Shown: positions 25,438-62,349 of the stretch, piece by piece
Layout: each line of letters begins with the position of its first letter
How positions within the stretch are numbered: the first letter of the stretch is position 1
Source: a virus
Taxonomy: Duplodnaviria > Heunggongvirae > Uroviricota > Caudoviricetes
Virus record (IMG/VR): IMGVR_UViG_3300031873_001030
DNA: 64,000 nucleotides
Direction: 5' to 3' (one strand)
Program-made: the position numbers and the translations under genes
The notes under the pieces: generated by a model
The model's input: the letters and a program-made list of their open reading frames with translations, nothing else
The model's database searches: none
Told to the model about the DNA's origin: nothing

Positions 25438-25466
25438 ATATTGATTGTAGTTCTTTTTAAAAACTA

Positions 25467-41671: not shown

Positions 41672-41696
41672 ACTTTGATTACCAATTATTATGACA

Positions 41697-41745
41697 GCGT
41701 ATGGTTAGGTCTGGTTGGATGTGATAAGATAAGGTTTGGTAAGAT
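41697..41745 (+). repeat. short GGTNN tract in the intergenic gap
   Basis: gcgtatggttaggtctggttggatgtgataagataaggtttggtaagat. Confidence 0.65.
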
Positions 41746-41763
41746 AATAAAGAGGTAATGTAA

Positions 41764-42054: not shown

Positions 42055-42583
42055 AATCTTGAATGTCGGTTGTGGTAATGATACCTATGGAACGGATTTT
42101 ATAGACATGTATCCGATGAGAAAGGAAGTAAGAAGATGCGATATTGAGAATGAGAAGCTTCCATTCAAGGATAATACTTTTGACGAAGTGTATTCTGAAA
42201 ACTTTTTTGAGCATCTGAAAAATCCAAGCAATGTGTTGAAGGAAATGAGAAGAGTGTTGAAGCATGGAGGCAAGCTTGTAGTCATAACAGATAATGCTGG
42301 ATTCTGGGCATTTCATATTGCTGGTGCTACTACTCACTATGGAGGATATGAGAAGAAAAGTTTTGGAAAATTGGACAGGCATTTCGGATTGTTCACCCCT
42401 TGGCATCTGAAAAATCATTTTGAAGATATCGGACTGAAAAATATCATGTATAAATATAGGTTATTGAGAAAGAAAAATCCTTATTGGTATGTGAGAATAA
42501 TTTCAAATGTCATAAGTGTTGTGACTAAGAGAATGGGACAATCGCAGATAAGGATTGAAGGTATTAAACAATTTACCAAATAA
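42044..42583 (+). CDS. class I SAM-dependent methyltransferase
   Basis: ILNVGCGND, LPFKDNTFDEVYSENFFEHL, LKHGGKLVVITDN. Confidence 0.8.
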   Translation: MVARILNVGCGNDTYGTDFIDMYPMRKEVRRCDIENEKLPFKDNTFDEVYSENFFEHLKNPSNVLKEMRRVLKHGGKLVVITDNAGFWAFHIAGATTHYGGYEKKSFGKLDRHFGLFTPWHLKNHFEDIGLKNIMYKYRLLRKKNPYWYVRIISNVISVVTKRMGQSQIRIEGIKQFTK

Positions 42584-43919: not shown

Positions 43920-44162
43920 TGTGAGTTGAAGAAAACATGTCACATGGGGAAAAAAGACAGAGAAGGAAAAAAACTAAGAAGCAAAGGCAAAGAAAAAGGA
44001 TGAAAGAGAGGAGAGACAAAGGGAGGTAATCTATGAATGAGATTGACATCCATGAAATGAATTATTTCATCGACATGGTGTCACCAGCTTATCAAGATGA
44101 GTTGTGAAAAAAATGAGATGCGAAAACAATAGGGGTAATTGCCCAATTTGGAGGGTTTTGTA

Positions 44163-48161: not shown

Positions 48162-48304
48162 AACTTACAAAGGAAAAGATAGCGTATTTCATCAAGGACG
48201 AGAAGAAAGCTGTGAAGGAATATCACAAGTATGGCCTGCACAATCTTGAAAAGGACGAGCGCAAGCATAAGAAATTCCTGCTTAAAAAATTAGGGGGAAA
48301 GTAA
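48158..48304 (+). CDS. 48-aa basic peptide
   Basis: ATGA overlap with the previous stop; abuts ATG 48305. Confidence 0.4.
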   Translation: MKLTKEKIAYFIKDEKKAVKEYHKYGLHNLEKDERKHKKFLLKKLGGK

Positions 48305-48928
48305 ATGCCAGAAGAAAAATGGAGGAAAAGATTAACATTTCAACCTTCTCCTGGAGCTTCTATAATGGATGCTTTTAAGATTGCAGAAGATTTGCCGCAA
48401 CTGACTACAGGAAAATTGCCATTGGGAGAAACAGAAAGAGAAATCAAGTCAAAAGAATGGTATGGGGCGACACGTCCAGAGGAATATGAGGAAAGGGAAC
48501 GGATAAAGAGAGAGGCTATGGTAAGGGAAGGAGTTAGGAGAAATCCGAAGTTGCCTGAACCTGAGATGGTTGGTGGGAAGGAAGGAATTGAAATTTTTAG
48601 TCCTGCTAAATCCTCGCTAACTTATGGTAGTCAGCCTCAAATAAGGGAAGCTGAAGATGTTCTCTCAAGGAAAGAAAAACTTAGAGCTAGGGCGCAAGTA
48701 TTGTCTGAAAAGGTTGAAGCAGAAAGTTTAAGAAGAAGAGAATTTGAAGAATGGAGAAGTTCTCCGAAAGGTGCTCCATTGAGATTTGCAGAGACTGTTG
48801 GTGCAAGATTTCTTAATCCAAGAGAGCTTCGTAGGATTCCCGCAATACCAAAAATGCCATTTGGCGGGTATAAAAAATATGGAAGGGGAATTGAAAGGAG
48901 AAAAGCTAAATTGCTTTTCAGCAGGTAA
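48305..48928 (+). CDS. Arg/Glu/Lys-rich protein
   Basis: ORF track. Confidence 0.55.
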   Translation: MPEEKWRKRLTFQPSPGASIMDAFKIAEDLPQLTTGKLPLGETEREIKSKEWYGATRPEEYEERERIKREAMVREGVRRNPKLPEPEMVGGKEGIEIFSPAKSSLTYGSQPQIREAEDVLSRKEKLRARAQVLSEKVEAESLRRREFEEWRSSPKGAPLRFAETVGARFLNPRELRRIPAIPKMPFGGYKKYGRGIERRKAKLLFSR

Positions 48929-49089
48929 AATAAAAATGGGAGATTCAAGATGAAATTAGTTAAAAGGAATGGTCAGTTCTTGGAGGAATGAACTAAGATG
49001 AATATCACTAGACAATTGTGGTTAGAAAAAAATAGAGATATGATTAGTGATTATAATAAAAATTATTATCTGAAGGAGGAAAAAAAATA

Positions 49090-49320
49090 ATGAGATTAAA
49101 AAAAGTCAAAGGTCAGTTTCTCATAGTTTCCATGATTGCCACATTTATGACAGTGACGGCATTCATCGTAATCTATCCGATATTGAGCAGCCAGATAAAT
49201 TCAGCAGTTGGAGATATGGATGTTTATTCTGCAACTATGCTGAAACTGACTCCGTTCTTCATATTGGTTAGCATAATACTGACGATAGTGTTCGCATCAA
49301 TGCCTATGAGAGAAGGTTGA
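49090..49320 (+). CDS. type IV pilin-like small protein (class III signal peptide)
   Basis: MRLKKVKG/QFLIVSMIATFMTVTAFIV: basic N-terminus, KG-Q junction, then a hydrophobic helix. Confidence 0.55.
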   Translation: MRLKKVKGQFLIVSMIATFMTVTAFIVIYPILSSQINSAVGDMDVYSATMLKLTPFFILVSIILTIVFASMPMREG

Positions 49321-49388
49321 ACACCGATAACGGTGTTGAAGAACTTTTTCAAATTAGGAGGAACTGACATGAAAGTAAAGAGTACAAT

Positions 49389-52300
49389 ATGCATTGGAAA
49401 CATTTACTTACTCATAAGTCTCTTTTTCTGGAGGGGATTCGAATCAGTATAAGATTGTCAAAGGCAACTGTAAAGATTACAAGCTTGATATTCGCATTGG
49501 CTCTGATTGGAACTTTTGGCTATCTTTTTATCTCCAATGTCAGCAACAAAGTGAGTGGAGATTCTTATAATGACATAAATATGAGTGATATAGTCAATAA
49601 TACTATAGTGACAGCATCTAGTTATTCGAATTATGAATATGAGGTGACTAAAAATGTATACAAGACTTATTTCCAAGACAATATCAATTCAGGTGAAGCT
49701 GTAAGGTTTGAGAAGGATGGATATTATTTCATATATGATTTGAGTGGTGGAAAGATTCAGTGGGCAGAACAAGATGGAAACCCTACGAAGACAAAGTCCA
49801 TAGGAGCAATATTATCTTCTCCGATAAGTCTTGCTGGTGATAAAGTTTATTACAATGATGCTTTTGCATATACAAATGTGAGTTATCTTATCTTGAATGA
49901 CATGCTCAAAGAGAATTTCATATTGTCATCATCGTTGCCGATAGATGACACATACTTGTATTTGGAATATACTGGTGAGATAAAGCATTCGGATAGTCTG
50001 ATGATTTATGCAAATGATAAGAATCAGACTGAAAAGAATTTTGTAACTCAAGGTAAGATAGAATTCAAGGATGTAAATGGAACTACGATATTTTTCTTAC
50101 CAGCACCTACAGTAACTGATTCGAATGGAAAGTCGGAATATGGTTTTTATGATATAAAAATTTCCAGTGGAAAGATTGCATTCAATCTTAGAGTGAACAG
50201 CACTTTCTTGAAAAATGCCGCTTACCCAGTGTATATAGACCCAACTATTAGAACTTTCAATGATACATTATCATCAAAAAACTTGACATTTATATGGAAT
50301 CAGAATCAGACACTTTATATATCAATACCAAAAAATGCTATAGTTACAAATGCTTACTTGAATTTGAGTGGATTCCCGGCACAGAATAATGTAAATTTCT
50401 TTGACCCCTTAGACAATGGAAATTATATTAGTTCAACCAATGCTATAGTAAGTGGCGGGCAAATAACATTAAATCGTCAAAACAATACAGGGGAAAGTTT
50501 TACTTCACCTCCCTGCAGTGAAATACAATATATAGGCGGTACCGTACCAGGTACTTATGCAACTGCACAATCCTTTAGAGCATCGGGTGTGTATCTTTCA
50601 TATATTAAAGTCAAGTTCTTCAATCAAGTCACCGCAACATTATCAATAAGGTCGAGTTTAGCTGGAGCCAATCTTGTTTCTACAAGTGTTGCAAGCGGAG
50701 ATGAGAGATATTATGAATGGTATATCACAAACCCACCAGCGCTCACTGTTGGTAATACTTACTACATAGTTCTTACATGGAGTTCTGACGGAAGCAATTA
50801 TGGAGGCTTGAGACAGGCTTGCTACAATTATTTGTATCCGAACGGAACTTATTATGCTTACTTGTTAAGTTCCTGGAACACTGAACCGAATGGGGCTTAC
50901 TATGACCATGCTTTTGAAACAAAATACTGGGAGTATGATACAAGCAATTATGTTAATTCAGTTGCAATAGACACCACATCATATTATTTGAATGCAACCT
51001 TAACAAAATCAGATAACATACCAGCAGGAACATCAATAACTTATTATTTAAGTTCAAATGGTGGCGCGTCTTGGGAACAAGTCACCTCAGGCATAAATCA
51101 TACATTCTCTAATATCGGGCAAGATATCAGATGGAGAGGAGTATTGACAACAAATTCTGATAGGTCATCAACACCAACACTTTATAACATGACTGTGAAT
51201 GCATCTCAAGGGTATTGGCCAATGAATCCTTATCTTGATATTTCTGGGGATGGAGACGTGGAATGGAATTATACAGGAACATTTAATCAATCAAACAATA
51301 GGACAGCAAACTTATCCTCTGAAATAAACACATATTTGTCGACTTGTACACCAACAAGTGGGAATTGCACAATGCCATTAGTATTCCATTCAGATACAGC
51401 AGGAATAATTCAGGTTTCAGATATCAACATAACATATAATGTGCCTTTTATATCGGTTTGGAATACTTCAAAGGCAGGAACTAGCAACTCTACACAGATT
51501 GAATTGCCTTTATACAATGGAGGCACTTATGCATTTACAGTGGACTGGGGTGATGGAACAACAGATTACATCACTTCATATCTGAATGATAACCACACTT
51601 ATGCGACAGCAGGGGTTTACGTTGTGAACATAGCTGGGACTATAAATGGATTCAGGTTCAACAATGGTGGCGACAGATTAAAGATTATCAACATCACACA
51701 ATGGGGAGACTTGAATGTAGGAAATTCTGGTAATTATTTTCACGGTTGTGCTAATTTGAATAGCAATGCCACTGATAACTTGAATTTGGCAGGAACTACG
51801 GATTTGTCTAATATGTTTTATTCAGCTACTTCCTTCAATGGAAGTATTTCAGGCTGGGATACAAGTGGTGTCACTTCCATGTATACTATGTTCTATGGCG
51901 CTTCTAATTTTAATTCGAATATTTCAAGCTGGAATACAGGAAATGTAATCAATATGGAATATATGTTTTATACCGCTTCTTCCTTTAATCAGAATATTTC
52001 AAACTGGAATACAGGAAAAGTCACTAGTATGTTAAGTATGTTTCATGGTGCCACTTCTTTCAATCAGAACATAAGCAATTGGGATGTCAGTAAAGTCACT
52101 ACTATGTCTGATATGTTTCATAGTGCTACTTCCTTCAATGGAAATATTTCAGGCTGGAATGTAGTCAATGTCACTACTATGTATGATATGTTCCATAGTG
52201 CCACTTCTTTCAATCAGAGTATGAGTAGTTGGAATACAGGAAATGTTGCTACTATGTTTTCCATGTTTTATGGTGCTACTGCTTTCAATGGCAATATTTC

Positions 52301-55300
52301 AGGCTGGAATACAGGAAATGTCAATAATATGGTAGCTATGTTTTATAATACTCCTTTTAATCAGAATATTGGAAATTGGAATGTCAGCAGTGTCACTACC
52401 ACATATCAGATGTTTTATAGTGCTTCTATTTTCAATCAGAATATCAGTAGTTGGAACACAAGTAAAGTCATTACTATGAGTGAGATGTTTCGTGGTGCTT
52501 CTGCTTTCAATCAGAATATAAGCAATTGGGATACAAGCAAAGTCACTACTATGACCAATATGTTTTATGATGCTACTTCATTCAATGGCAATGTTTCAGG
52601 CTGGAATATAGGAAATGTCACTACTATTGATTATATGTTCCGTGGTGCTACTTCTTTCAACCAGAGTATGAATAATTGGAACACAAGTAAAGTCACTACT
52701 ATGTATGCTATGTTCTATGGCGCTTCTAATTTTAATGGAAATATTTCAAATTGGAATACAAGCAATGTCATTGCCATGGATTATATGTTTTATAATACTG
52801 CTTTCAATCAGAATATTTCAAGCTGGAATACAGGAAAAGTCGCTAGTATGGCAGGTATGTTTCAGAGTGCTGCTTCCTTCAATCAGAATCTTAGTTCTTG
52901 GAATGTCAGTTCAGTGACTAATGCGGCAAATATGTTTTTGTCTGTGACATTATCTACTCCCAATTATGATTCCTTGCTTGTTGGATGGGGCAGCAGGGTT
53001 GAAAAGAATGCTACTGTTTTTTCGGGAGGTAATTCCAAGTATTCTGCTGCTGGTCTTGCTGGCAGGAATAATTTGACTGGTATTTATAATAATTGGACTA
53101 TCACTGATGGTGGTCCTGTGGACATAATTAATCCGACATATACTAACTTCGGTTCAGATTACACGAATAACACAGCAGTAAATGGCGGAAGTATTTTAAC
53201 TTATTATGCGAAATGGATAGATAATATCCAATTAGACAAATGTGTAAACTCAAGCAAGATAAATACCTCAGGCAGCTGGACTAATGGAACTTGGGCATCA
53301 GCAGGAACAGGTAACTGGACTAACTACACAGTAAAATTTCCAGCAGAAGTAGGAAGCAACTATACAGTAAAAATCTATTGTAACGATACTTCTGGATACA
53401 TGAATGTGACTGGAACTTTATTCTGGTGGGCAGAGAGTTTTGTGATAACTCAGAATCATACTTGGCAAGGTACGACATTGGAAGATGACAATACATTCGC
53501 ATATTCTCCAACGTTGAATGTGAGTTTCCAGATGACTGCATTGAATTTTGACAATGGAACATTTGAATTTGACGGAGCTAATTATACAATTTCTACAAAT
53601 CCAAAAGTTTACAACAATACCAATGGAGTTTATTGGATTAATTTTACAAATAAAAAACCAGGAAATTATAATTTCAAATGGTATGCCAGTACGATTAGTG
53701 GAATATGGAAAAATACAAGTCAAGTGACTTTGATAGTTACAAAGGCATATCCTGCATTTTCAAATTCAGTTACAACACCGATAAATTATCTTACTGCATC
53801 TGATTATGCAAGTAATGGAAATAATTTAGGTTGTGATGACTGTACATATTATACAAAAAGGAATGGAACTCAGATATGTGTTGGAGCTTGTTCAGATACG
53901 ACTGTATTAGGAGCAAGTGCATATAATTATACAATCTATACGGCTGGAGGTGAGAATTATACTTCAGGCCAGAGTGAATTGGATTTGACTGTGAATAAAA
54001 TCATATTGTCAGGTACGATAAATTCTCCTGATGTGACTTATCCTACTGGAATGTCAATAACTGGAAGCGAATCAAATACTGGAGATGGAGATGTCGCATA
54101 TCAAACTTGTTTAGATAATGTATGTACATTAGGCAAGGGACCAAATACTTTTAATTATGGTGCGAATACTTACACTTGCAAGTTCAACACCACTGGAGCT
54201 ACTTTTGAAAACTATACGGCAAGTGCAAGCATAGCTATAGACTCATGCACTATAAACAAAGGTACGTCACTTTCGCTGTCGATAAATTCAAATGTGACAT
54301 CACCGATAACATATCCTATACCATCATCGATAAACGGAAGTGGGTGTGTGTTTGGAGCTGGTTATGGGACAGATATAGTTTGTACTTTATACAGAGGAAA
54401 TTCAACTTGGTCAGGAACTGGAAATGATACGGCAATCTTAGGAGCGGGCATCTATGCATATAATTATTCTACTCCAGGAGGAACAAACTGGACTGCAACA
54501 TCTGCAAGCAATTATACACTGATAGTGAACAGGGGAAGTCTTTCTTTATCGATAAATTCCAATGTCACGTCTCCGATAACATATCCTACACCATCATCGG
54601 TAAATGGAAGTGGATGTGCAGGAAGTGATGTAGTCTGCACTTTATACAGAGGAAATTCGTCTTGGTCTGGAACAGGAAATGATTCTGCAGTTTTATCTGC
54701 AGGTGTGTATGCATATAATTATTCCACTCCAGGTGGAACTAACTATTCAGCAGCATCTGCTGTTAATTATACATTGGTAGTGCTTGGTAATACTCCGCCA
54801 ACATATTCGTATTTTGGTGCAACTGTTCCAAATAATACAGTAGTGGTTGGTGGAAGTGTTGTGACTTATTATGCAAAATGGTCAGATGATGTCCAATTGG
54901 ATAAGTGTGCAAATTCTTCGAGAGTGAATAATTCAGCATGGGTTAATGGGACATGGGTATCTCCAGGAACAGGCAATTGGACGAACTATACAGTAGCATT
55001 TCCATCTGAGCGTGGGAGCAACTTGACAATAAGGATTTATTGCAATGATAGTGTCGGGCAGATGGTTGAGACTGGAACTTTGTTCTGGATTATAGATTAT
55101 TATCCATATTCAAATTCTACAGGACAAGCAAGCAATTCGATACCTTCAGGGACTAACAACACGTTATTTTCTAAATTATTTGCTGGTGGCGGAGGCACTA
55201 CACTTAGTTGGGCATGGCTATCTACAAATGAAACAGGAGCGTGGAAAAATTATACAATTACTAATTATACGTATTATAGTGTAATCTTAAATGAATCAAA

Positions 55301-58300
55301 TAGTGGTAATATTGGTGATACTTTTGAGGCAGGTAGTAGTAATCCTAATATAAATAATGGTATATATCCAAGTCTGGAAGTCTATGCATTTTATGGTATG
55401 CGAACATTTTTGTTGTGGAATTTGTCAATAATACCAACAGGTGCTACAATAGTTAGTGCTAATTTGTCTTTATATGGGTATGATATTGCACATGGTGGAC
55501 TTGGTTCAAGATTGTATAATGCATATAATACATCTACATATACTCTCAATGATTGTGGGCAGCAATGGATAGAAGGAACAAGGAACCAGTCAGCTAATGT
55601 GACCTGTAATGAATTGGTATATAACAATCAGCCATCTTTGAATATTTTACAGGATTCTATTTGGACTGGAACTACAAGTAATGTTTGGTTATCTTGGAAT
55701 GTGACAAACGCCACTATATCAACTTATTCAAATACAACCAATAAAAATATGAGCATAGTAATAAAAGAAAATACTGAAGTTGACAATATTTATTCACTTT
55801 TCTTCTCAAAAGAATATACAGGTAACATAGCATTAAGGCCACAATTGAATATAACATATGCATTGCCTTCTCCTTATATTGCTGGAAGTTTATTCAATTG
55901 GGTTAATTTCACGTGGCAGAACAATTCCATAATTGCTGGAAACATAATAGGTTGGAAGATATATTTCAATGATTCTTTAGGGCATGAAAATGTGACTGAG
56001 ACATATAACTTTACTATTGAGAGTAGCAAACCGATAATATCCCAGAATCATACTTGGCAAGGTACGACATTGGAAGATGATAATACATTTACATATTCTC
56101 CAACTTTGAATGTCAGTTTCCAGATTACTGCATGGGCTTATGATTTGAACATTCTTACTGCGACATTTGAATTTAACGGAGTCAATTATACAAATTCAAC
56201 AACAACTAGGGTCTATAATAATACAAATAATGTGTTCTGGATTAACTTCACTTCGATGAAAGCTGGCAATTATAATTTCAGGTGGTATGTCAATGATACT
56301 GTAGGTGGATGGAGCAATACAAGTCAAGTTGTATTGGCAATAGGTAAAGCTACATTGGTTGGAACAATATCCTCTCCAGATGTGTATTTTCCTGCTGACA
56401 TGTCACTGACTGGTTTGGAAAGCAATGCAGGAGATGTGGATGTTGCATATCAGACTTGTCTAGGTGATGCATGTAAACCTGGATTAGGACCAAATCTTTT
56501 TGGTTCATGTTGTGAATATCCTGCAGATACTTACACTTGCAAATTCAATACGACTGGAGCTGTCTTTGAGAATTATACTTCAAATGCCAACATAGCTACA
56601 GATTCTTGTACAATCAATAAAGGAGGACTTGTAGGAACAATAACAAGTCCAGATGTAACTTATCCAGCTGACTTATTTTTAACTGGTTCAGAGAGCAATG
56701 TAGGTGATACAGATGTCACATATCAGACTTGTGTCAGCAACATATGTAAGGCAGGTTTGGGTGCGAATAGTTTTGATATTGGAGGAGGAACATATAATTG
56801 CATATTCAATACTACAGGAGCTACTTTTGCAAATTGGACGGCAAGTGCAAGCATGCAGACTGACAGTTGCACTGTAAACAAAGGAATATTGACAGGAAGT
56901 TCTTCATCACCAGCAGTGACTTATCCTGCTGGATTGACAGCGACAGGAACTGAAACTAACACAGTGGATACTGATGTCGCATACAGGGAATATTGTGAAT
57001 TAGGAACAAAAGGAGTTTTGATGGGTTCTGCCTTAGGTGGAAATCCTTCAGGAACTGTTGTGCTTGATGTAGGGACATGGACATGCAAGCTTAACACCAC
57101 AGGCGGACCATTTGCCAATTGGACTGCATCCGCAAGCATAGGAACATCTGTTGGAATAGTAAGCATAGGAACATTGACTGGGACTATATCATCTCCAGAT
57201 GTCACTTATCCGACTGATATGACAATCACTGGAATTGAGACTAATACTGGTGATAGTGATGTTGCTTATAGGACTTGTTTAAGTGGCAGTGGTGAATGCA
57301 AGTCAGGAAAGGGACCAAATACTTTTGATTATCCTCCTGGAACTTATAGTTGCGTATTTAACACTACAGGTGCGGCATTTGCAAATTGGACGTCATCATC
57401 AAATATTGCTACGGATGTGTGTGTCATAAACAATGGAACGCTTACAATACAATTGTCAACACCAACTCCTATAACTTATGAAGCTGTAGCTGGTATCGAA
57501 GGATGGATTACTAATAACGCTGGAGATGGTGGATGTACTTATATCTTATTGAGGAATGGCACTCAAATCAATACCAGTATTCATGTCACTGATAACACAA
57601 TACTAGGTGCTGGATATTACAACTATACTTATTATACAGCAGGTTGTGCAAATTATACTATCAATAGGCTTGCTGATGTGCCATTGACTGTGAATCAGAA
57701 AAATGCATTTGTAAGAGTCTATCCATGGACAGGTCCTATAACATATGAGACAAGTGTATTTCAATATTGTACATCCTTATCTACATTGGTAAATTGTACG
57801 ATGTACAGGAATGGAACTACAGTTACGAATGGAACGAATATAGTATTAGGAGTTGGAGCTTATCTTTTCAAGGCTAACATATCAGATGCTGCCAATTATA
57901 CAAATTATGATGACTTGAATATTCTGACTGTCGATAAAAAACAGTTGGCAGCAAATTTATGGATTAATGGTCACTTGAATCAGAATACAACTGTGGTTCA
58001 AACATTCCCATACATTCCTAAATATGCGACTTCAAATGCGACGAATATCAATGGATTGAGTGGTTCTCTATATAGAGATGATGCACCTGTTGCAGGTGAT
58101 ACTGATACAATTCCACCTGTGCAAGGAACATATAAATACAAGGCCAATGCGACTGGAAATGTAAATTATACAAGCGATTCTGTAGGGCAGACATTTTATG
58201 CAAGTGTCATCTCAGCTCACAACATAACAATCTCAAGTCCAGTAAATGGAAGTTCGATTGGGATATTGCCAAATACAAATAAGAGTGTCCAAATAAATTA

Positions 58301-60647
58301 TACGGTTGGAAATCCAGTTTCAATTGTTTGCGCATATGCGATAGATGCTGGAATCAATACATCATATCGTGTAAATATGCTGACATGTGAGAATGTGACT
58401 TCTATTGGCATAAGTCAGATTGGGAGCCATAACTTGACAGTAGCTGTTTGGGATACGTTCTTCACTACATATAATGAAAGCAGTGTCTTCTTTGACATAG
58501 ATTTTGTCAATCAGTGGATTGTGACTAATGGCGGTGGTGTTGTGCTGACTGATGGAAATGTATCATTTTCAAATGGAACGTATAGCTTTAACTTGTCTAC
58601 AACTAATGGAACGTTTTCGACAAATACATCTCTGCTTCCGAAAGGTAATGTGTCAGCTACATTCAAAGATTTTGTGACGTATGCAGATAAAACTGTATAC
58701 TACAATGTGACTAATGAGACTCAAATTTCTACAACTATTGTTCTTTCATTTTCTGGAGTCACTATAAGGGTATTTGGAGAAGATTCGCTTTCTCCGATAA
58801 ATTGGTATAAAGTGACGATGACAAATGGGACTGCAAGCACTGGAGCGTATACTACGCAATTGACAGTTGGAAAGGGAAATCCTGGGGGTTACTTGATAAA
58901 TTTCCTTGATGATGATATCAATACTTATGAGAGCAATCTGAATGCCTTGTTCACTTATGAATTTGGATTTACAAATGCGACATTTGCATTGACATATAAT
59001 ATATCTGATGCTGTTGGAAATAGCACCAATCTTACATTGAAGATTTATAACAATACAGTAGGTGCATGGGATACTGTCTTCAATCTGACAAATTCTGGAA
59101 ATAGTGGAGGAATCACGACAAGATATTTCACGATAGACAATAGTCCGTCGATATATGCAAATTATGGGGACATATTCACAAGCTGTCTTGGAACATATTG
59201 CCCATTGTTCATGATGAACATGACACCAGCTGGTTCTGCAGTGATAAAAGTTTATGAGATGAGATTGACAGAACCATATACTTATGATACAAACGGATTT
59301 GCACAGATTAATTTCACAAAGTTCCCGATTACTAGCGGAACTAGCAGATTCATGTTTCAATCTCCTGTATATGCTTCATCATTGAATAATTATGGACTGA
59401 GGACTTATTTCATAAATCCATCTGCGATGGCTACGATAAATTTGGATGCATATCTTAGTAACTTATGTTATATACAGCAGTTCCAAACTGTCCAATCTAG
59501 TTTGGCTACTACAAATCCTATTCCAGTTCCTGATGTGTTGCTTACATTGATGAAGGTATTTGGAACTGAATTGAAGATAGTCGACCAGCAGAAGAGCGAT
59601 TATTCTGGCATTGCAAGATTGTGTGTGGAAGCTGGTTATCCATATACTATGACTTTTGTGAAGAGTGGATATCAGACACAGACTGCTTATGATGAAGTGT
59701 TTTCAAACGCTGGTCCTTATTATGTCAACATGTTTACAGTGAACGCAAGCGATTACTTTTCAAACCCATATTCTACAAACATTTCGATAACTCCTGCAGA
59801 TAATTATATACACAATTCTACAACAATCTATACATGTGCTGTACTGGCTCCATATAATCCATGGGGACCTTCTGGAAATGTATTACTCTCATCTTTCCTT
59901 AGAATATATCATTCTTATGAGTTTGCTGCATATCCTCCAAACATATCTTCAGCGTTATATCCACCAAGTTCTGGATTCTGTAATGGTACTGCTCCATTTT
60001 GCACTAACTATTATACAAATACGACTTGTGCAGCAGTTGTAGGATGTAATTGGGTAAATTGGATTGTTACTGGTGCTTGTAATGGACCACCAACTTGCCT
60101 TAGTCATCTGAAAGAATCAACTTGTTTGAATGAGACTGGATGTGATTGGACACGTTTTGGACCATTTGGAATATCAACATTGCATAATTCGACATTGGTA
60201 TCTAATCAGACTTCAACAAATCCGCTTGGAGCTATATTCACTTATGGATTGAATGAGTCTGGAACTTACAACATAACTTGTGGAGGATATTTTCGTGTAG
60301 TGAATGATACTTCAATCTTCAATGCGACTGGGAGTATTATCGAAATTTCTAAGCAGAGGGTAATATGGGTAGAACCTACTGGAGGTGGAATAGCTGGTGC
60401 TGGAAAAGACTTGATAGGAAACATAAGCGAATCTGCGTTATATTTTGTAGTGCTGATATTGGATATGATTATAACAAGTTTCTTTGTCCGTCACTTTGGT
60501 ATGAAAAGTGCGTTTATATTCCTTGTAGTATGGGCTATGGCAATGGTGATATTAGGAGGTTGGGGTTTCAATGCACAGACTGGAGTATTCTCAGTTGGAT
60601 TTTTGTTATGGATAGCACTCATGTTCTATCCATATAGGAGGGAATAA
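49389..60647 (+). CDS. 3752-aa giant surface protein with DUF285/BspA-type repeats, duplicated modules, a Cys-rich region and C-terminal TM helices
   Basis: Uninterrupted ORF; N-terminal TM; ~15 x 25-aa MFxxAxxFNxNISxWNTxxVxxMxx repeats; very dense N-x-S/T sequons; DNRLRE-like segment (LLWNLSIIPTGATIVSANLSLYGY). Confidence 0.9.
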   Translation: MHWKHLLTHKSLFLEGIRISIRLSKATVKITSLIFALALIGTFGYLFISNVSNKVSGDSYNDINMSDIVNNTIVTASSYSNYEYEVTKNVYKTYFQDNINSGEAVRFEKDGYYFIYDLSGGKIQWAEQDGNPTKTKSIGAILSSPISLAGDKVYYNDAFAYTNVSYLILNDMLKENFILSSSLPIDDTYLYLEYTGEIKHSDSLMIYANDKNQTEKNFVTQGKIEFKDVNGTTIFFLPAPTVTDSNGKSEYGFYDIKISSGKIAFNLRVNSTFLKNAAYPVYIDPTIRTFNDTLSSKNLTFIWNQNQTLYISIPKNAIVTNAYLNLSGFPAQNNVNFFDPLDNGNYISSTNAIVSGGQITLNRQNNTGESFTSPPCSEIQYIGGTVPGTYATAQSFRASGVYLSYIKVKFFNQVTATLSIRSSLAGANLVSTSVASGDERYYEWYITNPPALTVGNTYYIVLTWSSDGSNYGGLRQACYNYLYPNGTYYAYLLSSWNTEPNGAYYDHAFETKYWEYDTSNYVNSVAIDTTSYYLNATLTKSDNIPAGTSITYYLSSNGGASWEQVTSGINHTFSNIGQDIRWRGVLTTNSDRSSTPTLYNMTVNASQGYWPMNPYLDISGDGDVEWNYTGTFNQSNNRTANLSSEINTYLSTCTPTSGNCTMPLVFHSDTAGIIQVSDINITYNVPFISVWNTSKAGTSNSTQIELPLYNGGTYAFTVDWGDGTTDYITSYLNDNHTYATAGVYVVNIAGTINGFRFNNGGDRLKIINITQWGDLNVGNSGNYFHGCANLNSNATDNLNLAGTTDLSNMFYSATSFNGSISGWDTSGVTSMYTMFYGASNFNSNISSWNTGNVINMEYMFYTASSFNQNISNWNTGKVTSMLSMFHGATSFNQNISNWDVSKVTTMSDMFHSATSFNGNISGWNVVNVTTMYDMFHSATSFNQSMSSWNTGNVATMFSMFYGATAFNGNISGWNTGNVNNMVAMFYNTPFNQNIGNWNVSSVTTTYQMFYSASIFNQNISSWNTSKVITMSEMFRGASAFNQNISNWDTSKVTTMTNMFYDATSFNGNVSGWNIGNVTTIDYMFRGATSFNQSMNNWNTSKVTTMYAMFYGASNFNGNISNWNTSNVIAMDYMFYNTAFNQNISSWNTGKVASMAGMFQSAASFNQNLSSWNVSSVTNAANMFLSVTLSTPNYDSLLVGWGSRVEKNATVFSGGNSKYSAAGLAGRNNLTGIYNNWTITDGGPVDIINPTYTNFGSDYTNNTAVNGGSILTYYAKWIDNIQLDKCVNSSKINTSGSWTNGTWASAGTGNWTNYTVKFPAEVGSNYTVKIYCNDTSGYMNVTGTLFWWAESFVITQNHTWQGTTLEDDNTFAYSPTLNVSFQMTALNFDNGTFEFDGANYTISTNPKVYNNTNGVYWINFTNKKPGNYNFKWYASTISGIWKNTSQVTLIVTKAYPAFSNSVTTPINYLTASDYASNGNNLGCDDCTYYTKRNGTQICVGACSDTTVLGASAYNYTIYTAGGENYTSGQSELDLTVNKIILSGTINSPDVTYPTGMSITGSESNTGDGDVAYQTCLDNVCTLGKGPNTFNYGANTYTCKFNTTGATFENYTASASIAIDSCTINKGTSLSLSINSNVTSPITYPIPSSINGSGCVFGAGYGTDIVCTLYRGNSTWSGTGNDTAILGAGIYAYNYSTPGGTNWTATSASNYTLIVNRGSLSLSINSNVTSPITYPTPSSVNGSGCAGSDVVCTLYRGNSSWSGTGNDSAVLSAGVYAYNYSTPGGTNYSAASAVNYTLVVLGNTPPTYSYFGATVPNNTVVVGGSVVTYYAKWSDDVQLDKCANSSRVNNSAWVNGTWVSPGTGNWTNYTVAFPSERGSNLTIRIYCNDSVGQMVETGTLFWIIDYYPYSNSTGQASNSIPSGTNNTLFSKLFAGGGGTTLSWAWLSTNETGAWKNYTITNYTYYSVILNESNSGNIGDTFEAGSSNPNINNGIYPSLEVYAFYGMRTFLLWNLSIIPTGATIVSANLSLYGYDIAHGGLGSRLYNAYNTSTYTLNDCGQQWIEGTRNQSANVTCNELVYNNQPSLNILQDSIWTGTTSNVWLSWNVTNATISTYSNTTNKNMSIVIKENTEVDNIYSLFFSKEYTGNIALRPQLNITYALPSPYIAGSLFNWVNFTWQNNSIIAGNIIGWKIYFNDSLGHENVTETYNFTIESSKPIISQNHTWQGTTLEDDNTFTYSPTLNVSFQITAWAYDLNILTATFEFNGVNYTNSTTTRVYNNTNNVFWINFTSMKAGNYNFRWYVNDTVGGWSNTSQVVLAIGKATLVGTISSPDVYFPADMSLTGLESNAGDVDVAYQTCLGDACKPGLGPNLFGSCCEYPADTYTCKFNTTGAVFENYTSNANIATDSCTINKGGLVGTITSPDVTYPADLFLTGSESNVGDTDVTYQTCVSNICKAGLGANSFDIGGGTYNCIFNTTGATFANWTASASMQTDSCTVNKGILTGSSSSPAVTYPAGLTATGTETNTVDTDVAYREYCELGTKGVLMGSALGGNPSGTVVLDVGTWTCKLNTTGGPFANWTASASIGTSVGIVSIGTLTGTISSPDVTYPTDMTITGIETNTGDSDVAYRTCLSGSGECKSGKGPNTFDYPPGTYSCVFNTTGAAFANWTSSSNIATDVCVINNGTLTIQLSTPTPITYEAVAGIEGWITNNAGDGGCTYILLRNGTQINTSIHVTDNTILGAGYYNYTYYTAGCANYTINRLADVPLTVNQKNAFVRVYPWTGPITYETSVFQYCTSLSTLVNCTMYRNGTTVTNGTNIVLGVGAYLFKANISDAANYTNYDDLNILTVDKKQLAANLWINGHLNQNTTVVQTFPYIPKYATSNATNINGLSGSLYRDDAPVAGDTDTIPPVQGTYKYKANATGNVNYTSDSVGQTFYASVISAHNITISSPVNGSSIGILPNTNKSVQINYTVGNPVSIVCAYAIDAGINTSYRVNMLTCENVTSIGISQIGSHNLTVAVWDTFFTTYNESSVFFDIDFVNQWIVTNGGGVVLTDGNVSFSNGTYSFNLSTTNGTFSTNTSLLPKGNVSATFKDFVTYADKTVYYNVTNETQISTTIVLSFSGVTIRVFGEDSLSPINWYKVTMTNGTASTGAYTTQLTVGKGNPGGYLINFLDDDINTYESNLNALFTYEFGFTNATFALTYNISDAVGNSTNLTLKIYNNTVGAWDTVFNLTNSGNSGGITTRYFTIDNSPSIYANYGDIFTSCLGTYCPLFMMNMTPAGSAVIKVYEMRLTEPYTYDTNGFAQINFTKFPITSGTSRFMFQSPVYASSLNNYGLRTYFINPSAMATINLDAYLSNLCYIQQFQTVQSSLATTNPIPVPDVLLTLMKVFGTELKIVDQQKSDYSGIARLCVEAGYPYTMTFVKSGYQTQTAYDEVFSNAGPYYVNMFTVNASDYFSNPYSTNISITPADNYIHNSTTIYTCAVLAPYNPWGPSGNVLLSSFLRIYHSYEFAAYPPNISSALYPPSSGFCNGTAPFCTNYYTNTTCAAVVGCNWVNWIVTGACNGPPTCLSHLKESTCLNETGCDWTRFGPFGISTLHNSTLVSNQTSTNPLGAIFTYGLNESGTYNITCGGYFRVVNDTSIFNATGSIIEISKQRVIWVEPTGGGIAGAGKDLIGNISESALYFVVLILDMIITSFFVRHFGMKSAFIFLVVWAMAMVILGGWGFNAQTGVFSVGFLLWIALMFYPYRRE
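51790..52945 (+). repeat. ~15 tandem 75-bp (25-aa) DUF285-type repeats inside the giant ORF
   Basis: Successive ATGTT(T/C) unit starts at 51813 and 51888 are 75 bp apart. Confidence 0.9.
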
Positions 60648-60649
60648 TC

Positions 60650-61099
60650 ATGAAAATGATATATAGGAAAGCAGCATCGTTGACTTTATTATTATCCATA
60701 TGGGCTGGAATAATAGGAGTTGGTGTATTGGCATATCCAAGCGGATATAAATCTACTTGGGACCAGATACAGACAGTATATTCAAATCCAGTTGGTGCAA
60801 TTCCAGTGATAATTAAGAATGCATTTTCAGCAGGGAATCTTGGTATGTTTGGAGGATTGTTAGTTGCTGGAGCAGTATCTGCAGTGATATTTACAACTTC
60901 TGTCTTGGGTGGTGGATTTTCCCAGCTGTTTGCAATTCCACTATTGATTATATTTGCAGTTGTCAATATGTTTGTCTTGCCAACGACTCAGATATTGTCA
61001 GAAAGTGGTGCGCCTTATGCAGTGCAGGTAATCTATACGCTTTTCATAGGGACACTTACTATTTTGACGGCATTGACATTCACTTCAGGTAGACCATAA
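60650..61099 (+). CDS. polytopic membrane protein
   Basis: ORF track; 3 nt after the giant ORF stop. Confidence 0.6.
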   Translation: MKMIYRKAASLTLLLSIWAGIIGVGVLAYPSGYKSTWDQIQTVYSNPVGAIPVIIKNAFSAGNLGMFGGLLVAGAVSAVIFTTSVLGGGFSQLFAIPLLIIFAVVNMFVLPTTQILSESGAPYAVQVIYTLFIGTLTILTALTFTSGRP

Positions 61100-61149
61100 G
61101 AGGCAAATGATATGAAAAAAGAAGATACAGAGAAGGAGGGAATGAGAAA

Positions 61150-61425
61150 ATGGTAGTATCTTTTCCATTCTTATGGGATGAATTGATTCAACAATTGTTA
61201 CTTAGTGTGACAGGTAGCCCATTACTTGTTGGTCTAATCGGAATATTTTTCATCGGAGTGTTAGGATTGGCAATGAGATTGACATTAGAGATACAGCTAA
61301 TTGCGATGTTCTTTTTTATAATGCTAATTGCTGTCGCATATATACCATGGATAAGTGGAGTTGTGCTAATTGTAGCTGGAATATTCGTTGGAATGTTTTT
61401 CTTTTACACGTTTTTCAGAGGATAA
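61150..61425 (+). CDS. small membrane protein (three TM helices)
   Basis: ORF track. Confidence 0.55.
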   Translation: MVVSFPFLWDELIQQLLLSVTGSPLLVGLIGIFFIGVLGLAMRLTLEIQLIAMFFFIMLIAVAYIPWISGVVLIVAGIFVGMFFFYTFFRG

Positions 61426-61426
61426 T

Positions 61427-61615
61427 ATGGAATTTGAAAAAGAATTGCAGTGCCCAAGATGCAGGACAAATTCACTGATAGATATAGGTGATTGGGATGA
61501 TGAGAATCTTTTCAAGTGCGTGTCTTGCAGATATTGGTTTCTGGAATCTTACATAAGAGGAAAAAATAATGATGCGTTGTGTCTGCATGAAGTGCCGATA
61601 GGAGATTTAAAATGA
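61427..61615 (+). CDS. zinc-ribbon protein (CPRC...CVSC)
   Basis: ATG 61427 lies 2 nt after the previous stop; in frame with track ORF 61388..61615. Confidence 0.5.
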   Translation: MEFEKELQCPRCRTNSLIDIGDWDDENLFKCVSCRYWFLESYIRGKNNDALCLHEVPIGDLK

Positions 61616-61830
61616 AATATCTGTACAACAAAGTTTCAGAAAAAATAGATGAGCTGATAAGGAAGAGCCCGAAGAGGGAGTTGGATATGGAATTATTGAA
61701 GAGGAGTCTTCCAAATAAGATAAGGCTTACAAGATTTGACGTATTGAGCATTGTGAGAGAAATGGAAAAAGATGGTTGTTTCGTTATCGATGGCAATAAA
61801 CTCAGAAAGGAGGTGAAAACCGATGGTTGA
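61612..61830 (+). CDS. small wHTH-like protein
   Basis: ORF track; ATGA overlap. Confidence 0.45.
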   Translation: MKYLYNKVSEKIDELIRKSPKRELDMELLKRSLPNKIRLTRFDVLSIVREMEKDGCFVIDGNKLRKEVKTDG

Positions 61831-62206: not shown

Positions 62207-62349
62207 AAGAGTTAGGAACTGTGAAAAGAGGCAAGGTGAAGATATATTCAGAGAAACAGATGAAGTATCTTCATTTTAAGGAATTGCCTCACACTCACTA
62301 TAAGTATGTTGGAGGAAAGTTAATAAAAAAGAGGCATATATATACATGA
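62203..62349 (+). CDS. 48-aa basic peptide
   Basis: ATGA overlaps at both ends. Confidence 0.35.
   Translation: MKELGTVKRGKVKIYSEKQMKYLHFKELPHTHYKYVGGKLIKKRHIYT

Follow-up and report, generated by a model that had tools for sequence, protein, structure and literature searches.

What does a locus encode in which the gene for a 76-aa hydrophobic protein is followed by an 11.3-kb open reading frame (ORF) and the genes for two small membrane proteins, and to what kind of genetic element does it belong? An initial annotation of the 64,000-nt stretch analysed here (the window) had read the small protein as a pilin with a class III signal peptide and the whole as an attachment apparatus of DPANN archaea or CPR bacteria. 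The sequence features that it described hold up well. The genes of the 76-aa protein, which has two helices, of the 3752-aa giant, a continuous ORF, and of the two small polytopic membrane proteins (~4 and ~3 hydrophobic helices) are tightly packed on the plus strand (Table 1), with 68 nt between the ORFs of the 76-aa protein and the giant and 2 nt between those of the giant and the 149-aa protein. However, the region probably holds the virion-structure genes of an undescribed, large (~92 kb) archaeal virus of spindle shape, which may be free or integrated as a provirus.

Table 1. Features of the locus and its surroundings, in positions of the 64,000-nt window.
Feature	Position	Strand	Basis or remark
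Large non-exported protein, 1340-aa ORF	44139..48161	+	gene call of 1332 aa from 44163
48-aa basic protein, kept in relatives	48158..48304	+	90% identity in L005
207-aa strongly charged basic protein	48305..48928	+	C-terminal half matches L005 gene
13-codon ORF MKLVKRNGQFLEE	48950..48991	+	resembles capsid gene 5' end
76-aa major capsid protein candidate, α-hairpin of SSV1 VP1/His1 VP21 type	49090..49320	+	homology, fold
7-bp hairpin, then T5, just past capsid gene stop	49321..49350	+	dG
28-codon ORF in other frame, conserved ribosome-binding site and start (MKVKSTICIGNIYLLISLFF...)	49369..49452	+	
3752-aa giant exported glycoprotein, proposed tail fibre/tailspike	49389..60647	+	continuous ORF
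N-terminal hydrophobic segment aa 30-48, signal peptide or signal anchor	49476..49532	+	hydropathy
Giant N-terminal domain, aa ~71-288	49599..50252	+	21 homologues
~15 DUF285/PARCEL (BspA-like) 25-aa repeats	51805..52903	+	Pfam, NCBIfam, repeat spacing
~90-aa Cys-containing module, one canonical and two variant copies, aa 1535-1794	53991..54770	+	
Four tandem canonical ~90-aa modules, aa 2318-2680	56340..57428	+	
Conserved C-terminal module aa 3044-3752, β-rich domains, then helical anchor	58518..60644	+	
Cys-rich insertion aa 3529-3591, 8 Cys	59973..60161	+	alignment with two homologues
Three C-terminal hydrophobic helices, end ...FYPYRRE	60435..60635	+	hydropathy; kept in P0072 and P0073
149-aa protein, ~4 hydrophobic helices	60650..61099	+	hydropathy; L017 homologue
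91-aa protein, ~3 hydrophobic helices	61150..61425	+	hydropathy; L017 homologue
62-aa zinc-ribbon protein (CxxC...CxxC)	61427..61615	+	gene call, weak zinc-ribbon matches
72-aa small protein	61612..61830	+	70% identity to L017 76-aa gene
Second giant exported glycoprotein, 1736 aa, start only in window	62346..64000	+	gene calls in L003

Judged from its sequence, the 76-aa protein most likely serves this virus as major capsid protein. In each of three libraries its only match was a spindle-virus capsid protein, namely SSV19 VP1 in the PDB (7xdi_A, E 0.0024), VP1 of Sulfolobus spindle viruses among deposited viruses (tblastn, 33% identity, 97% coverage, E 0.1) and phrog_11172 ‘virion structural protein’ in PHROG. 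For the window protein alone these matches are individually weak (E 0.001-0.1), and it stays below the Pfam threshold, that of His1_capsid included. An exhaustive HMMER search yielded 66 representatives, nearly all of 70-90 aa and matched over near full length. Aligned with hhalign, the family profile was assigned to fusellovirus VP1/VP3 with 95% probability (E 3.6e-8, 46-member alignment) and to SSV19 VP1 alone with 95.3% (E 2.2e-8), while three hydrophobic control proteins all remained below 1%; 10 of the 46 members match Pfam His1_capsid and 7 match phrog_11172. AlphaFold predicts a hairpin of two helices (residues 6-40 and 45-70, pLDDT 89.5) with the fold of the cryo-EM structure 7xdi_A, which is also its top Foldseek match in the PDB (TM 0.59/0.64, rmsd 2.2 Å, E 1.8). 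Like the capsid proteins of Fuselloviridae (VP1/VP3) and Halspiviridae (His1 VP21, PF25665) and phrog_11172, the protein consists of about 75 aa with two hydrophobic helices and a short loop, and shares the motif AT[LM]L.L.P[LF]F.[IL] at the start of helix 2. A variable leader ahead of helix 1 likewise occurs in the 139-aa SSV1 VP1 precursor. In contrast to these proteins, it belongs to a subfamily of its own, marked by a near-invariant [KR]GQ[FYM]T and a conserved C-terminal P.RE, and its loop lacks a sequon. To our knowledge, this capsid family is known solely from archaeal viruses, which makes a bacterial (CPR) origin unlikely; the predicted host is an archaeon.

The earlier assignment as a pilin drew on genuine features, i.e. 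a basic leader, a KG|Q junction with G at -1 and Q at +1, and a hydrophobic helix thereafter, as in archaeal type IV pilins with class III signals. The Q is kept in at least 90% of the 46 family members, whereas the leader varies in length, and Methanococcus pilins cleaved by EppA also carry Q at +1 and can be as small as about 70 aa. Yet the most conserved part of the protein is a second, C-terminal hydrophobic helix that had been given no weight before, the hairpin contains no globular pilin domain, significant homology exists only to capsid proteins of spindle viruses, and some leaders have lengths (40-115 aa) that are untypical of class III signals. The 76-aa protein has no pilin match in Pfam, and no pilin family is found among the 25 Pfam families most often matched by the 46 members. 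Nor do the Pfam results of the larger ORFs scanned or the precomputed Pfam tables contain a pilus ATPase, platform protein, peptidase or other pilus-assembly family, and no assembly genes lie nearby. The capsid homology, the second hydrophobic helix and the missing globular domain argue strongly against the 76-aa protein being a pilin. An attachment apparatus of a DPANN or CPR cell, which would consist of a pilin-like subunit cut by prepilin peptidase, a giant adhesin and two membrane proteins, is also at odds with the virus-like nature of the ~92-kb element, of which ~80 kb were read and found free of housekeeping genes; we consider it extremely improbable.

The surroundings of the capsid gene candidate show further signals. 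GGAGG is located 11 nt upstream of its start, and the hairpin behind its stop codon (dG -11.8 kcal/mol, z -2.7 versus shuffles) could, together with the T5 run, be a partial terminator or attenuator. The truncated pilin-like N-terminus reported just upstream does exist as a 13-codon ORF, shifted by one base to 48950-48991. It matches positions 49090-49122 at 22 of 33 nt, one of only two such non-self matches to the capsid gene start on both strands of the window, and is probably a degenerate duplicate of the capsid gene 5' end.

By analogy with fuselloviruses, the giant protein is most likely a sugar-coated tail fibre for gripping host cells. Its hydrophobic segments, recognized before and recovered by hydropathy, lie at aa 30-48 and, at the C terminus, at aa 3683-3700, 3707-3727 and 3731-3749, and it contains 185 N-X-S/T sequons compared with 91 ± 7-9 in composition-matched shuffles. 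Domain parsing retrieved the DUF285/BspA-type repeats of the initial annotation (Pfam DUF285, E 2.8e-138; NCBIfam PARCEL repeat TIGR02167 in 11 stretches), with 15 motif copies at 25-aa spacing and, at the DNA level, 14.5 copies of a 75-nt period. Its count of about seven ~95-aa modules was fair, as there are five canonical ~90-aa copies (aa 1535-1622, 2318-2409, 2409-2496, 2496-2591 and 2591-2680), two clear variants (aa 1622-1706 and 1713-1794) and weaker ones besides. The DNRLRE-like segment, on the other hand, was not reproduced, the NCBIfam model giving no match at E<=0.05. The C-terminal module shares 42-45% identity with two homologues, P0072 and P0073, both of which lack the previously noted Cys-rich stretch, an insertion unique to the giant; in the related locus L017, the module contains a CarboxypepD_reg-like stretch. 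A structure model of this module is all-β followed by helices, but of low confidence (pLDDT 43), and its fold matches are generic. Sequence searches with the giant found no match in the PDB, and for aa 1190-3752 tblastn found none among deposited viruses.

Long internal repeats in a short-read metagenome assembly raise the question whether the giant ORF results from collapsed or chimeric repeats, or represents a decaying pseudogene. Its 5' end at 49389 is indeed tentative. A conserved Shine-Dalgarno sequence (GGAGG 7 nt upstream) and ATG at 49369 open another frame that stops after 28 codons; both DNA and peptide are kept at the start of the gene following the capsid gene in the related locus L005 (MKIKGTIYIGSICLVISIF), and this is probably the ancestral start of the giant gene. 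As it is out of frame with the long ORF, a 1-nt indel may have occurred near the T5/G4 runs at ~49420-49445. A second assembly confirms only the last 4.6 kb of the ORF, which it reproduces together with the downstream genes at 99.935% identity, with 5 mismatches and no indels. Moreover, 11.3 kb are free of stop codons at 36% GC, the domain order is coherent, the C-terminal module is full-length in relatives, and the repeats have diverged to 39-79% amino-acid identity, which makes a collapse less likely. An artefact or pseudogene is very unlikely.

The fibre assignment is based on topology and gene order. SSV22 VP4 is built in the same way as the giant: behind a signal peptide lies an ectodomain rich in sequons (24 versus 11.8 expected), and the C terminus carries three hydrophobic helices. 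Downstream of its gene come, in turn, two genes for small hydrophobic proteins and those for a regulator, VP1 and VP3. In L017, a homologue of the C-terminal module of the giant (44% identity) precedes homologues of the 149-aa and 91-aa proteins, a zinc ribbon and the 72-aa homologue, a small winged-helix-like protein at the regulator position, and then a VP1-like gene (7xdi_A, E 2.8e-6; His1_capsid, E 9e-6) and a VP3-like gene. The order of large internal protein, small basic protein(s), capsid gene and signal-peptide protein recurs in L005, L013 and L023, and a signal-peptide protein directly 3' of the capsid gene is kept in four lineages. The giant differs from fusellovirus VP4 (SSV1 C792; SSV19 VP4, 7xdi) in several respects: with 3752 aa compared with 797-1236 aa, it has 3 to 5 times the length, its ectodomain consists of PARCEL/DUF285 repeats and ~90-aa modules, it has no sequence similarity to VP4, and the GH76-like α/α6 core of VP4 was not found in it. 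In addition, the window has a single capsid gene rather than a pair of VP1 and VP3, and this gene lies upstream of the giant, whereas the capsid genes of fuselloviruses and L017 lie downstream. VP4 of SSV19 has a Z-shaped bundle of three helices at its C terminus, on which VP1 stacks, and the tail proteins of this virus carry N-glycans at NXT (PMC9351363). We propose that the three C-terminal helices of the giant may similarly anchor it in the capsid lattice.

The centre of the cluster is thus a huge, exported, repeat-rich, adhesin-like glycoprotein, which makes the attachment role suggested before reasonable, even if a cellular attachment organ is not supported. Such a protein could also be displayed on the host cell for partner adhesion or virus exclusion (lysogenic conversion) by a provirus or plasmid with a real capsid protein, its helices being a mere membrane anchor. 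PARCEL/DUF285 repeats are typical of cell-surface proteins, and with 15 of them the giant resembles BspA-like surface proteins as well as giant adhesins from DPANN and CPR organisms. Its N-terminal domain has 21 homologues (39-67% identity), always N-terminal in exported proteins of 600-1300 aa, cellular archaeal surface proteins among them. One of these, P0079, shares several modules as well and is encoded on an archaeal chromosomal contig with nearly the GC content of the element (0.358 versus 0.359), and one weak homologue is labelled Candidatus Pacearchaeota, a DPANN group. The lack of a sequence link to VP4 fits this explanation, too. However, P0079 ends in a single transmembrane helix and a basic tail, so that the three-helix end goes with the capsid-gene context. 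Unlike those adhesins, the giant has a viral capsid gene as its neighbour and is part of a virus-like element, and both its position and topology mirror VP4. Given also the signal-peptide proteins behind the capsid genes of four lineages, display on the host surface instead of the virion is rather unlikely.

As a virion module, the locus could function as follows. After probable removal of the N-terminal leader at the near-invariant KG|Q junction, the 76-aa hairpin would become embedded in the host membrane, and its copies would pack laterally to form a capsid lattice. The N-terminal signal of the giant would send the chain across this membrane, where its ectodomain may become heavily N-glycosylated, possibly with a contribution from the element's own glycosyltransferases. 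The three C-terminal helices would remain embedded in the membrane, docking onto capsid hairpins at one virion pole, and the ectodomain with its PARCEL/DUF285 solenoid, ~90-aa Cys-containing modules and other β-rich domains could bind the host surface. The hydrophobic 149-aa and 91-aa proteins, made along with the giant, may be small virion or tail-base components.

The gene content of the element as a whole, which measures 91,950 and 92,011 bp in two assemblies, is virus-like. It includes five clustered tRNAs, two nucleases of the ERCC4 and GIY-YIG types, a weak match to PD-(D/E)XK, an ATP-dependent DNA ligase, many methyltransferases, a pair of MoxR and VWA proteins, and a P-loop protein of 396 aa that has a winged-helix domain and whose MCM match stays below threshold. 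MoxR-type ATPase and VWA protein also form a pair in the Bicaudaviridae ATV and SMV1 (PMC4124505). [quoted passage not shown] The non-repeat part of the giant and the 1340-aa protein have no tblastn match to any deposited virus. Neither an integrase nor a packaging gene was found in the ~80 kb read. With the patterns used, no relatives were detected in IMG/VR, nor were there any in GTDB representative genomes or, with the 149-aa protein as query, in the metagenome contig collection scanned.

Among the neighbouring genes, the 1340-aa protein has no hydrophobic segment, no Cys and a single N-X-S/T sequon, and no match in Pfam, PHROG or NCBIfam. It shares 48% identity with the ORF that lies upstream of the L005 capsid gene, and its C-terminal motif DL.SVA.SQA.YGKATTPK recurs in L013 and L023. 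As the conserved first gene of the capsid block, it is a candidate for an internal virion or scaffold protein. At the position of the 48-aa basic protein, L013 has a 47-aa gene. The 207-aa protein, without family match in Pfam, PHROG or NCBIfam, may bind nucleic acid; its C-terminal half is 47% identical to a 104-aa gene ahead of the capsid gene in L005. Downstream of the giant, the 149-aa protein (45-49% identity to a 134-aa gene in L017) is a candidate small virion or tail-base protein and is similar neither to the 156-aa protein that SSV22 has in the C131/C166 position nor to any chain in the PDB; the 91-aa protein (49% identity to a 94-aa gene in L017) is a candidate small virion protein. 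The zinc-ribbon gene of L017 occupies the same position as that of the 62-aa protein. The L017 counterpart of the 72-aa protein lies directly ahead of the VP1-like gene, the position of the fuselloviral regulator, and the 72-aa protein is possibly a winged-helix regulator. Further downstream, the second giant has a signal peptide, 168 sequons versus 60 expected and tandem 102- and 162-nt repeats in its gene, and is followed by a third giant exported glycoprotein of at least 1460 aa.

The 76-aa protein encoded upstream of the giant gene is very probably a capsid protein and not a pilin. Three independent libraries each returned one kind of match for it, namely phrog_11172 'virion structural protein' in the PHROG search (E 0.001), Sulfolobus spindle-virus VP1 genes in a tblastn search (33% identity, covering 97% of the query, at E 0.1), and the major capsid protein VP1 of SSV19 (7xdi_A, E 0.0024), which was the only match in the PDB. 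Since these single-sequence matches are individually weak, a family of the protein was assembled. A word-indexed search provided five close homologues, and HMMER run exhaustively over 1.8 billion representatives provided 66 at E<=1e-3, nearly all of them 70-90 aa in length and aligned across almost the entire length. When an alignment of 46 family members was compared by hhalign with 11 fusellovirus VP1/VP3 sequences, the probability was 95% (E 3.6e-8), and with VP1 of SSV19 alone 95.3% (E 2.2e-8), versus less than 1% for the hydrophobic controls (E. coli ATP synthase subunit c, a 79-aa protein of SSV22 and the 91-aa protein of the window). Both groups share a motif that reads SATMLKLTPFFIL in the 76-aa family and NATLLNLVPLFYIL in fuselloviruses. 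The Pfam family His1_capsid is matched by 10 of the 46 members and phrog_11172 by seven; the 76-aa protein alone stays below threshold in Pfam and has no match there. The other Pfam families matched by the 46 members are unrelated membrane-protein and DUF families, which we read as composition-driven.

The predicted two-helix architecture is in line with this assignment. Hydropathy delineates two hydrophobic helices (aa 8-34 and 45-75) instead of one, and AlphaFold, supplied with the family alignment, predicts a hairpin of helices 6-40 and 45-70 (pLDDT 89.5). Searched against 350,542 PDB chains with Foldseek, this model ranks 7xdi_A first (TM 0.59/0.64, rmsd 2.2 A), at an E of 1.8 that is not significant because helical hairpins carry little information. 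Its size and its two helices joined by a short loop are those of the VP1/VP21 family (~70-90 aa when mature), and the setting is that of spindle-virus structural genes, as seen in the gene order of L017, the locus of a relative, and in the topological match to SSV22. Neither IMG/VR nor the GTDB representative genomes yielded relatives with the close capsid alignment.

In the initial annotation, the same protein had been described as pilin-like with a class III signal peptide. The motif is real: the N-terminus MRLKKVKG/QFLIVSMIATF combines a short basic leader, a [KR][GA] site and a hydrophobic helix, as in class III signal peptides. What did not hold is the pilin. Archaeal pilins consist of a single N-terminal helix and a soluble, mostly beta head, while the remainder of the 76-aa protein is its second hydrophobic helix. 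No pilin family occurs among the 25 Pfam families most matched by the 46 relatives, and neither the Pfam scan of the larger ORFs nor the precomputed Pfam tables show a pilus-assembly family (ATPase, platform protein or peptidase). Given the capsid homology and the lack of these families, the proposed pilus and adhesin system was the wrong kind of system, though the underlying description of the sequence was correct. This case calls for caution in genome scanning, as the combination of a small protein (basic leader, glycine, hydrophobic helix) and a neighboring giant adhesin-like gene can represent a viral capsid protein and a fibre.

Across the capsid family, [KR]GQ[FYM]T stands immediately N-terminal to helix 1, with the glutamine kept in at least 90% of members, and the leader ahead of the KGQ junction ranges from 2 to ~115 residues, where some of the long leaders may be start-codon miscalls. 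The KG/Q junction thus looks like a processing site. SSV1 VP1 is made as a precursor of 139 aa, whose mature N-terminus arises by a cut just ahead of E (…KLTKG/EATN). In both the 76-aa family, at its putative site, and SSV1, the cleavage context resembles that of a prepilin peptidase. We know of no protease that matures the capsid proteins of spindle-shaped viruses, and a literature search found no paper tying these proteins to class III signal peptides, their peptidases or prepilin peptidase. Maturation of the capsid protein by a prepilin-type peptidase is a speculative but testable idea.

Coordinates of the features discussed (positions in the window unless a locus is named)
Coordinates	Strand	Feature
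5950-7950		~2-kb gene-free, G+T-rich stretch, degenerate pentanucleotide array (NNGGT)n
6149-6225, 6947-7022		two ~75-nt hairpin-forming elements in the array
24527-25538	-	five tRNA genes (Tyr, Pro, His, Asn and one Rfam-only)
25468-25538		the Rfam-only tRNA gene
36768-42583		sugar-modification cluster
42573-43328	-	251-aa ORF
42939-43133		48-nt tandem repeat in the 251-aa ORF
44139-48161		1340-aa protein
48950-48991		13-codon ORF
49090-49320	+	76-aa protein, candidate major capsid protein
49321-49350		7-bp hairpin and T5 directly 3' of the capsid stop codon
49369-49452		28-codon frame with conserved start, out of frame with the giant ORF
49389-60647	+	giant, 3752 aa
~49420-49445		T5/G4 runs
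60650-61099	+	149-aa protein
61150-61425	+	91-aa protein
62346-64000, continued in L003 (same contig) 11197-20276		two additional giant glycoproteins with signal peptides (1736 aa; at least 1460 aa)
L022 (same contig, 5' of the window) 2893-8207		MoxR-type ATPase, 75-aa gene, VWA protein, DNA ligase
L017 3843-4633		adjoining VP1-like and VP3-like genes
L021 (cellular archaeal contig) 10001-13876		P0079, 1291-aa surface protein

The four consecutive ORFs of the operon described initially are present as annotated and separated by 68, 2 and 50 nt. Most of the architecture assigned to the giant was likewise borne out, i.e. an N-terminal hydrophobic segment (aa 30-48), three C-terminal helices within aa 3683-3749, 15 DUF285 motif copies at 25-aa spacing (Pfam PF03382, E 2.8e-138), seven Cys-containing modules of ~90 aa (five canonical and two clear variant copies), and a Cys-rich stretch at aa 3529-3591, which is an insertion relative to two homologues. 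TIGR02167 (PARCEL) additionally matches 11 stretches (E 1.8e-54), and at the DNA level the DUF285/PARCEL region has a 75-nt period with 14.5 copies. Only the DNRLRE-like segment found no backing, as the NCBIfam DNRLRE model has no match at E<=0.05. The region of aa ~1921-2164 is common to three other proteins that share modules with the giant (P0075, P0079 and P0085). A second assembly reproduces the ORF over its 3'-terminal 4.6 kb only, at 99.935% identity and with zero indels. At the 5' end, a conserved Shine-Dalgarno ribosome-binding site and ATG (49369) open a frame other than that of the giant, and the peptide read from it (MKVKSTICIGNIYLLISLFF) agrees with the N-terminus encoded by the equivalent gene of a relative, which leaves the first ~20 residues of the giant uncertain. 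The mismatch of frames suggests either an indel of 1 nt or a misassembly close to the T5/G4 runs, or else a start that has shifted to 49389 and lacks its own ribosome-binding site.

In its layout, the giant resembles VP4, the tailspike of fuselloviruses. In SSV19, the C-terminus of VP4 forms a Z-shaped bundle of three helices that VP1 hairpins stack on, small helical proteins make up the adaptor and the nozzle, and the tail proteins are N-glycosylated at NXT (PMC9351363). Hydropathy of SSV22 VP4 delineates a signal peptide and three C-terminal hydrophobic helices, with 24 sequons versus 11.8 expected. The giant has the same parts, a signal peptide, a sequon-rich ectodomain and a three-helix hydrophobic anchor at the C-terminus, and its 185 N-X-S/T sequons, compared with 91 expected from shuffles, let us infer glycosylation; it differs from VP4 in being 3-5 times larger. 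Sequence similarity to VP4 was not found, neither with the whole giant against the PDB at E<=0.1, a library that includes the SSV19 tail entry 7xdi in which VP4 is modelled, nor with aa 1190-3752 against deposited viruses by tblastn. As to a GH76-like alpha/alpha6 core, the giant has no glycoside-hydrolase match in Pfam, and the sole modelled part, the C-terminal 709 aa, appears at low confidence as all-beta followed by helices. This model, built from a three-sequence alignment, has a pLDDT of 43 and only generic beta-sandwich arrays as Foldseek matches (TM ~0.1), and hence was used solely for the order of secondary structure. The C-terminal-module alignment retrieved no relatives from IMG/VR or the GTDB representative genomes.

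The same 709 aa are 42-45% identical to two homologues, P0072 and P0073, the former being the end of a larger gene that is cut off by the border of contig L017. There, it is followed by genes for a 134-aa protein (45-49% identity to the 149-aa protein of the window), a 94-aa protein (49% identity to the 91-aa protein), a zinc ribbon, a 76-aa protein (70% identity to the 72-aa protein encoded 3' of the giant), a VP1-like protein of 76 aa (7xdi_A, E 2.8e-6; His1_capsid, E 9e-6), and a VP3-like protein of 152 aa that has a long loop and carries a KGQ junction. Both capsid-type proteins are found by the capsid family profile of the window (E 4e-8 and 8e-5). In SSV22, the genes behind VP4 encode, in order, a three-helix protein of 79 aa, a multi-helix protein of 156 aa, a winged-helix regulator, VP1 and VP3. 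L017 thus parallels the fusellovirus order of VP4, two small hydrophobic proteins, regulator, VP1 and VP3, except for the extra zinc-ribbon gene, and its 76-aa protein takes the regulator's place by position only. The window departs from this order, with a single capsid gene, placed upstream of the giant, and no capsid gene behind the 72-aa gene. That the 149-aa protein might be homologous to the fusellovirus nozzle was considered and rejected: compared with the 156-aa protein of SSV22, which holds the C131/C166 position, hhalign gave 0.4%, and there is no PDB match, so the relation is a positional analogy only. No relatives were found with the 149-aa alignment in the metagenome contig collection. 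Hence, the giant is the positional and topological counterpart of VP4, and, for want of sequence similarity and of a relation between the 149-aa and nozzle-position proteins, it is best said to work like VP4 rather than to be a VP4 homologue. The relative that carries L017 has two further capsid-type genes, the adjoining VP1-like and VP3-like ones, and therefore related elements may combine two or three types of capsid protein.

On balance, we favor the giant as a fibre of the virion. The main rival reading, in which it is displayed on the host cell instead, would fit the domains that it shares with P0079, a cellular archaeal surface protein. The N-terminal domain of the giant (aa ~71-288) is also N-terminal in 21 other exported proteins at 39-67% identity, P0079 among them. 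The VP4-like anchor and the gene order around it point to the virion, and display on the cell is considered unlikely. Beyond the fibre assignment, these domains bear on the host. P0079 carries the N-terminal domain at 48% identity together with other modules of the giant, and ends in a single transmembrane helix with a basic tail. It is encoded on a chromosomal archaeal contig that also holds PheRS and RNase P p30 genes and has a GC content of 0.358 (0.359 in the window); this contig may be a clue to the host lineage. The common domain and modules suggest that ectodomain parts were exchanged between virus and cells within its host range. One weak homologue carries the label Candidatus Pacearchaeota, and a DPANN host is possible.

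The capsid gene itself sits in a neighborhood whose order recurs in four lineages (the window, L005, L013-L016 and L023). A large protein without hydrophobic segment or Cys and with almost no sequons, ending in DL.SVA.SQA.[FY]G[KR]AT.P, is followed by one to three small basic proteins, the capsid protein, and a sequon-rich protein that starts with a signal peptide. In the latter, the N-terminal parts vary among relatives and the C-terminal anchor module is conserved, a pattern that would befit a receptor-binding protein. In the window, the first place is taken by the 1340-aa protein, which has no Cys, no hydrophobic segment, one sequon and a Gly run (GGGGGGGEGKK) near the C-terminus, and no match in any library including deposited viruses by tblastn; its C-terminal motif SQA.YGKATTPK is kept 5' of the capsid gene in three other lineages. 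The truncated pilin-like N-terminus noted initially just upstream of the capsid gene exists as a 13-codon ORF (MKLVKRNGQFLEE), albeit one nucleotide further on than the 48949-48990 first assigned. It is identical to the initial 33 nt of the capsid gene at 22 positions, a level reached by only two non-self matches on both strands of the window, and is probably, from this resemblance, what is left of a second copy of the start of the capsid gene. The relative L005 lacks the 161-nt spacer in which it lies. The hairpin behind the capsid gene (dG -11.8 kcal/mol, z -2.7) might attenuate read-through into the giant gene, by analogy with the SSV1 termination site just 3' of VP1. A promoter and terminator scan showed no enrichment over shuffles, its models being bacterial and thus uninformative for an archaeal element.

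The surroundings are those of a virus-like element of an archaeon. The window lies within the metagenome contig k141_1406800 of ENA ERZ27247974, which has 91,950 bp (92,011 bp in the JGI assembly version), and the ~80 kb of it that were read contain no ribosomal, translation or central-metabolism genes. Contig genes encode a P-loop protein of 396 aa that has a winged-helix domain and matches MCM only below threshold, ERCC4/HhH and GIY-YIG nucleases, a weak PD-(D/E)XK match, many methyltransferases, several glycosyltransferases, a PMT_2-type GT-C enzyme and an SPFH protein, and many ORFs have no family. Upstream of the window, a MoxR-type AAA+ ATPase (475 aa), a 75-aa gene and a VWA protein (540 aa, faint VWA match) are encoded along with an ATP-dependent DNA ligase of 274 aa. 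A MoxR/VWA pair is present in the large spindle viruses ATV and SMV1 and is a virion-associated chaperone pair in ATV (PMC4124505). In large spindle viruses of ANME-1, of up to 72.6 kb, structural and enzymatic genes form separate arms (PMC9894754). Two early ideas were dropped. A Borg-like element of Methanoperedens, considered because of single-strand coding and low GC, was abandoned without any supporting match once the capsid homology emerged, and a tailed phage with a tape-measure protein lost ground as no Pfam or PHROG scan contained a terminase, portal or HK97 family. Megablast of the window from 44 to 64 kb against deposited phages and viruses returned nothing.

Taken together, the region likely encodes the virion structure of a large, new spindle-shaped virus of archaea, comprising a VP1-type capsid protein from a distinct KGQ subfamily, a giant glycosylated tail fibre anchored in the style of VP4, and small hydrophobic virion proteins. 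To our knowledge, spindle-shaped viruses have archaeal hosts only, and nearly all that we know of their attachment comes from small Sulfolobus viruses of 11-24 kb. The element would extend this type to a ~92-kb genome in a low-GC, non-thermophile-looking setting, and the design of capsid and anchored tailspike would scale to a heavily glycosylated 3752-aa fibre, which would rank among the largest archaeal-virus proteins we are aware of. The capsid subfamily with its [KR]GQ junction, at least 66 clusters at 50% identity, offers a marker for finding such viruses in metagenomes. A far bolder combination, improbable as a whole, would make the contig the near-complete genome of a new family-level spindle-virus lineage, the largest with a VP1-type capsid, bearing three fibres made of giant glycoproteins (3752, 1736 and at least 1460 aa) that derive in part from surface-protein domains of the host; the class III (prepilin) signal peptidase of the host would mature the capsid protein at KG/Q, and the lattice would form from membrane-inserted subunits processed in pilin style. 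If true, this would link spindle-virus morphogenesis to the type IV pilin pathway.

Several other features accompany the structural genes. The 1736-aa protein, one of the two further giants 3' of the cluster, has 168 sequons versus 60 expected as well as internal tandem repeats of 102 and 162 nt; neither giant has a Pfam match. Just 5' of the structural genes, the sugar-modification cluster comprises a GT1 glycosyltransferase, a C-methyltransferase, a 537-aa PMT_2-type GT-C enzyme and two SAM methyltransferases, and may decorate the giant glycoproteins. The near-perfect 48-nt tandem repeat (3.1 copies, 97% matches) lies in an ORF without family match. The tRNA cluster is on the strand opposite to most genes and adjoins the ERCC4/HhH nuclease gene. 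The G+T-rich array, which has no Rfam match and was not flagged by Tandem Repeats Finder, contains 136 GGT in 1951 nt versus 14 in a control stretch, with 99 of 113 short GGT-to-GGT spacings being 5, 10, 15 or 20 nt; its two hairpin-forming elements are 91-94% identical, and units of ~64 nt are repeated. Possible roles of this stretch are those of a replication origin, a protein-binding array or a non-coding RNA.
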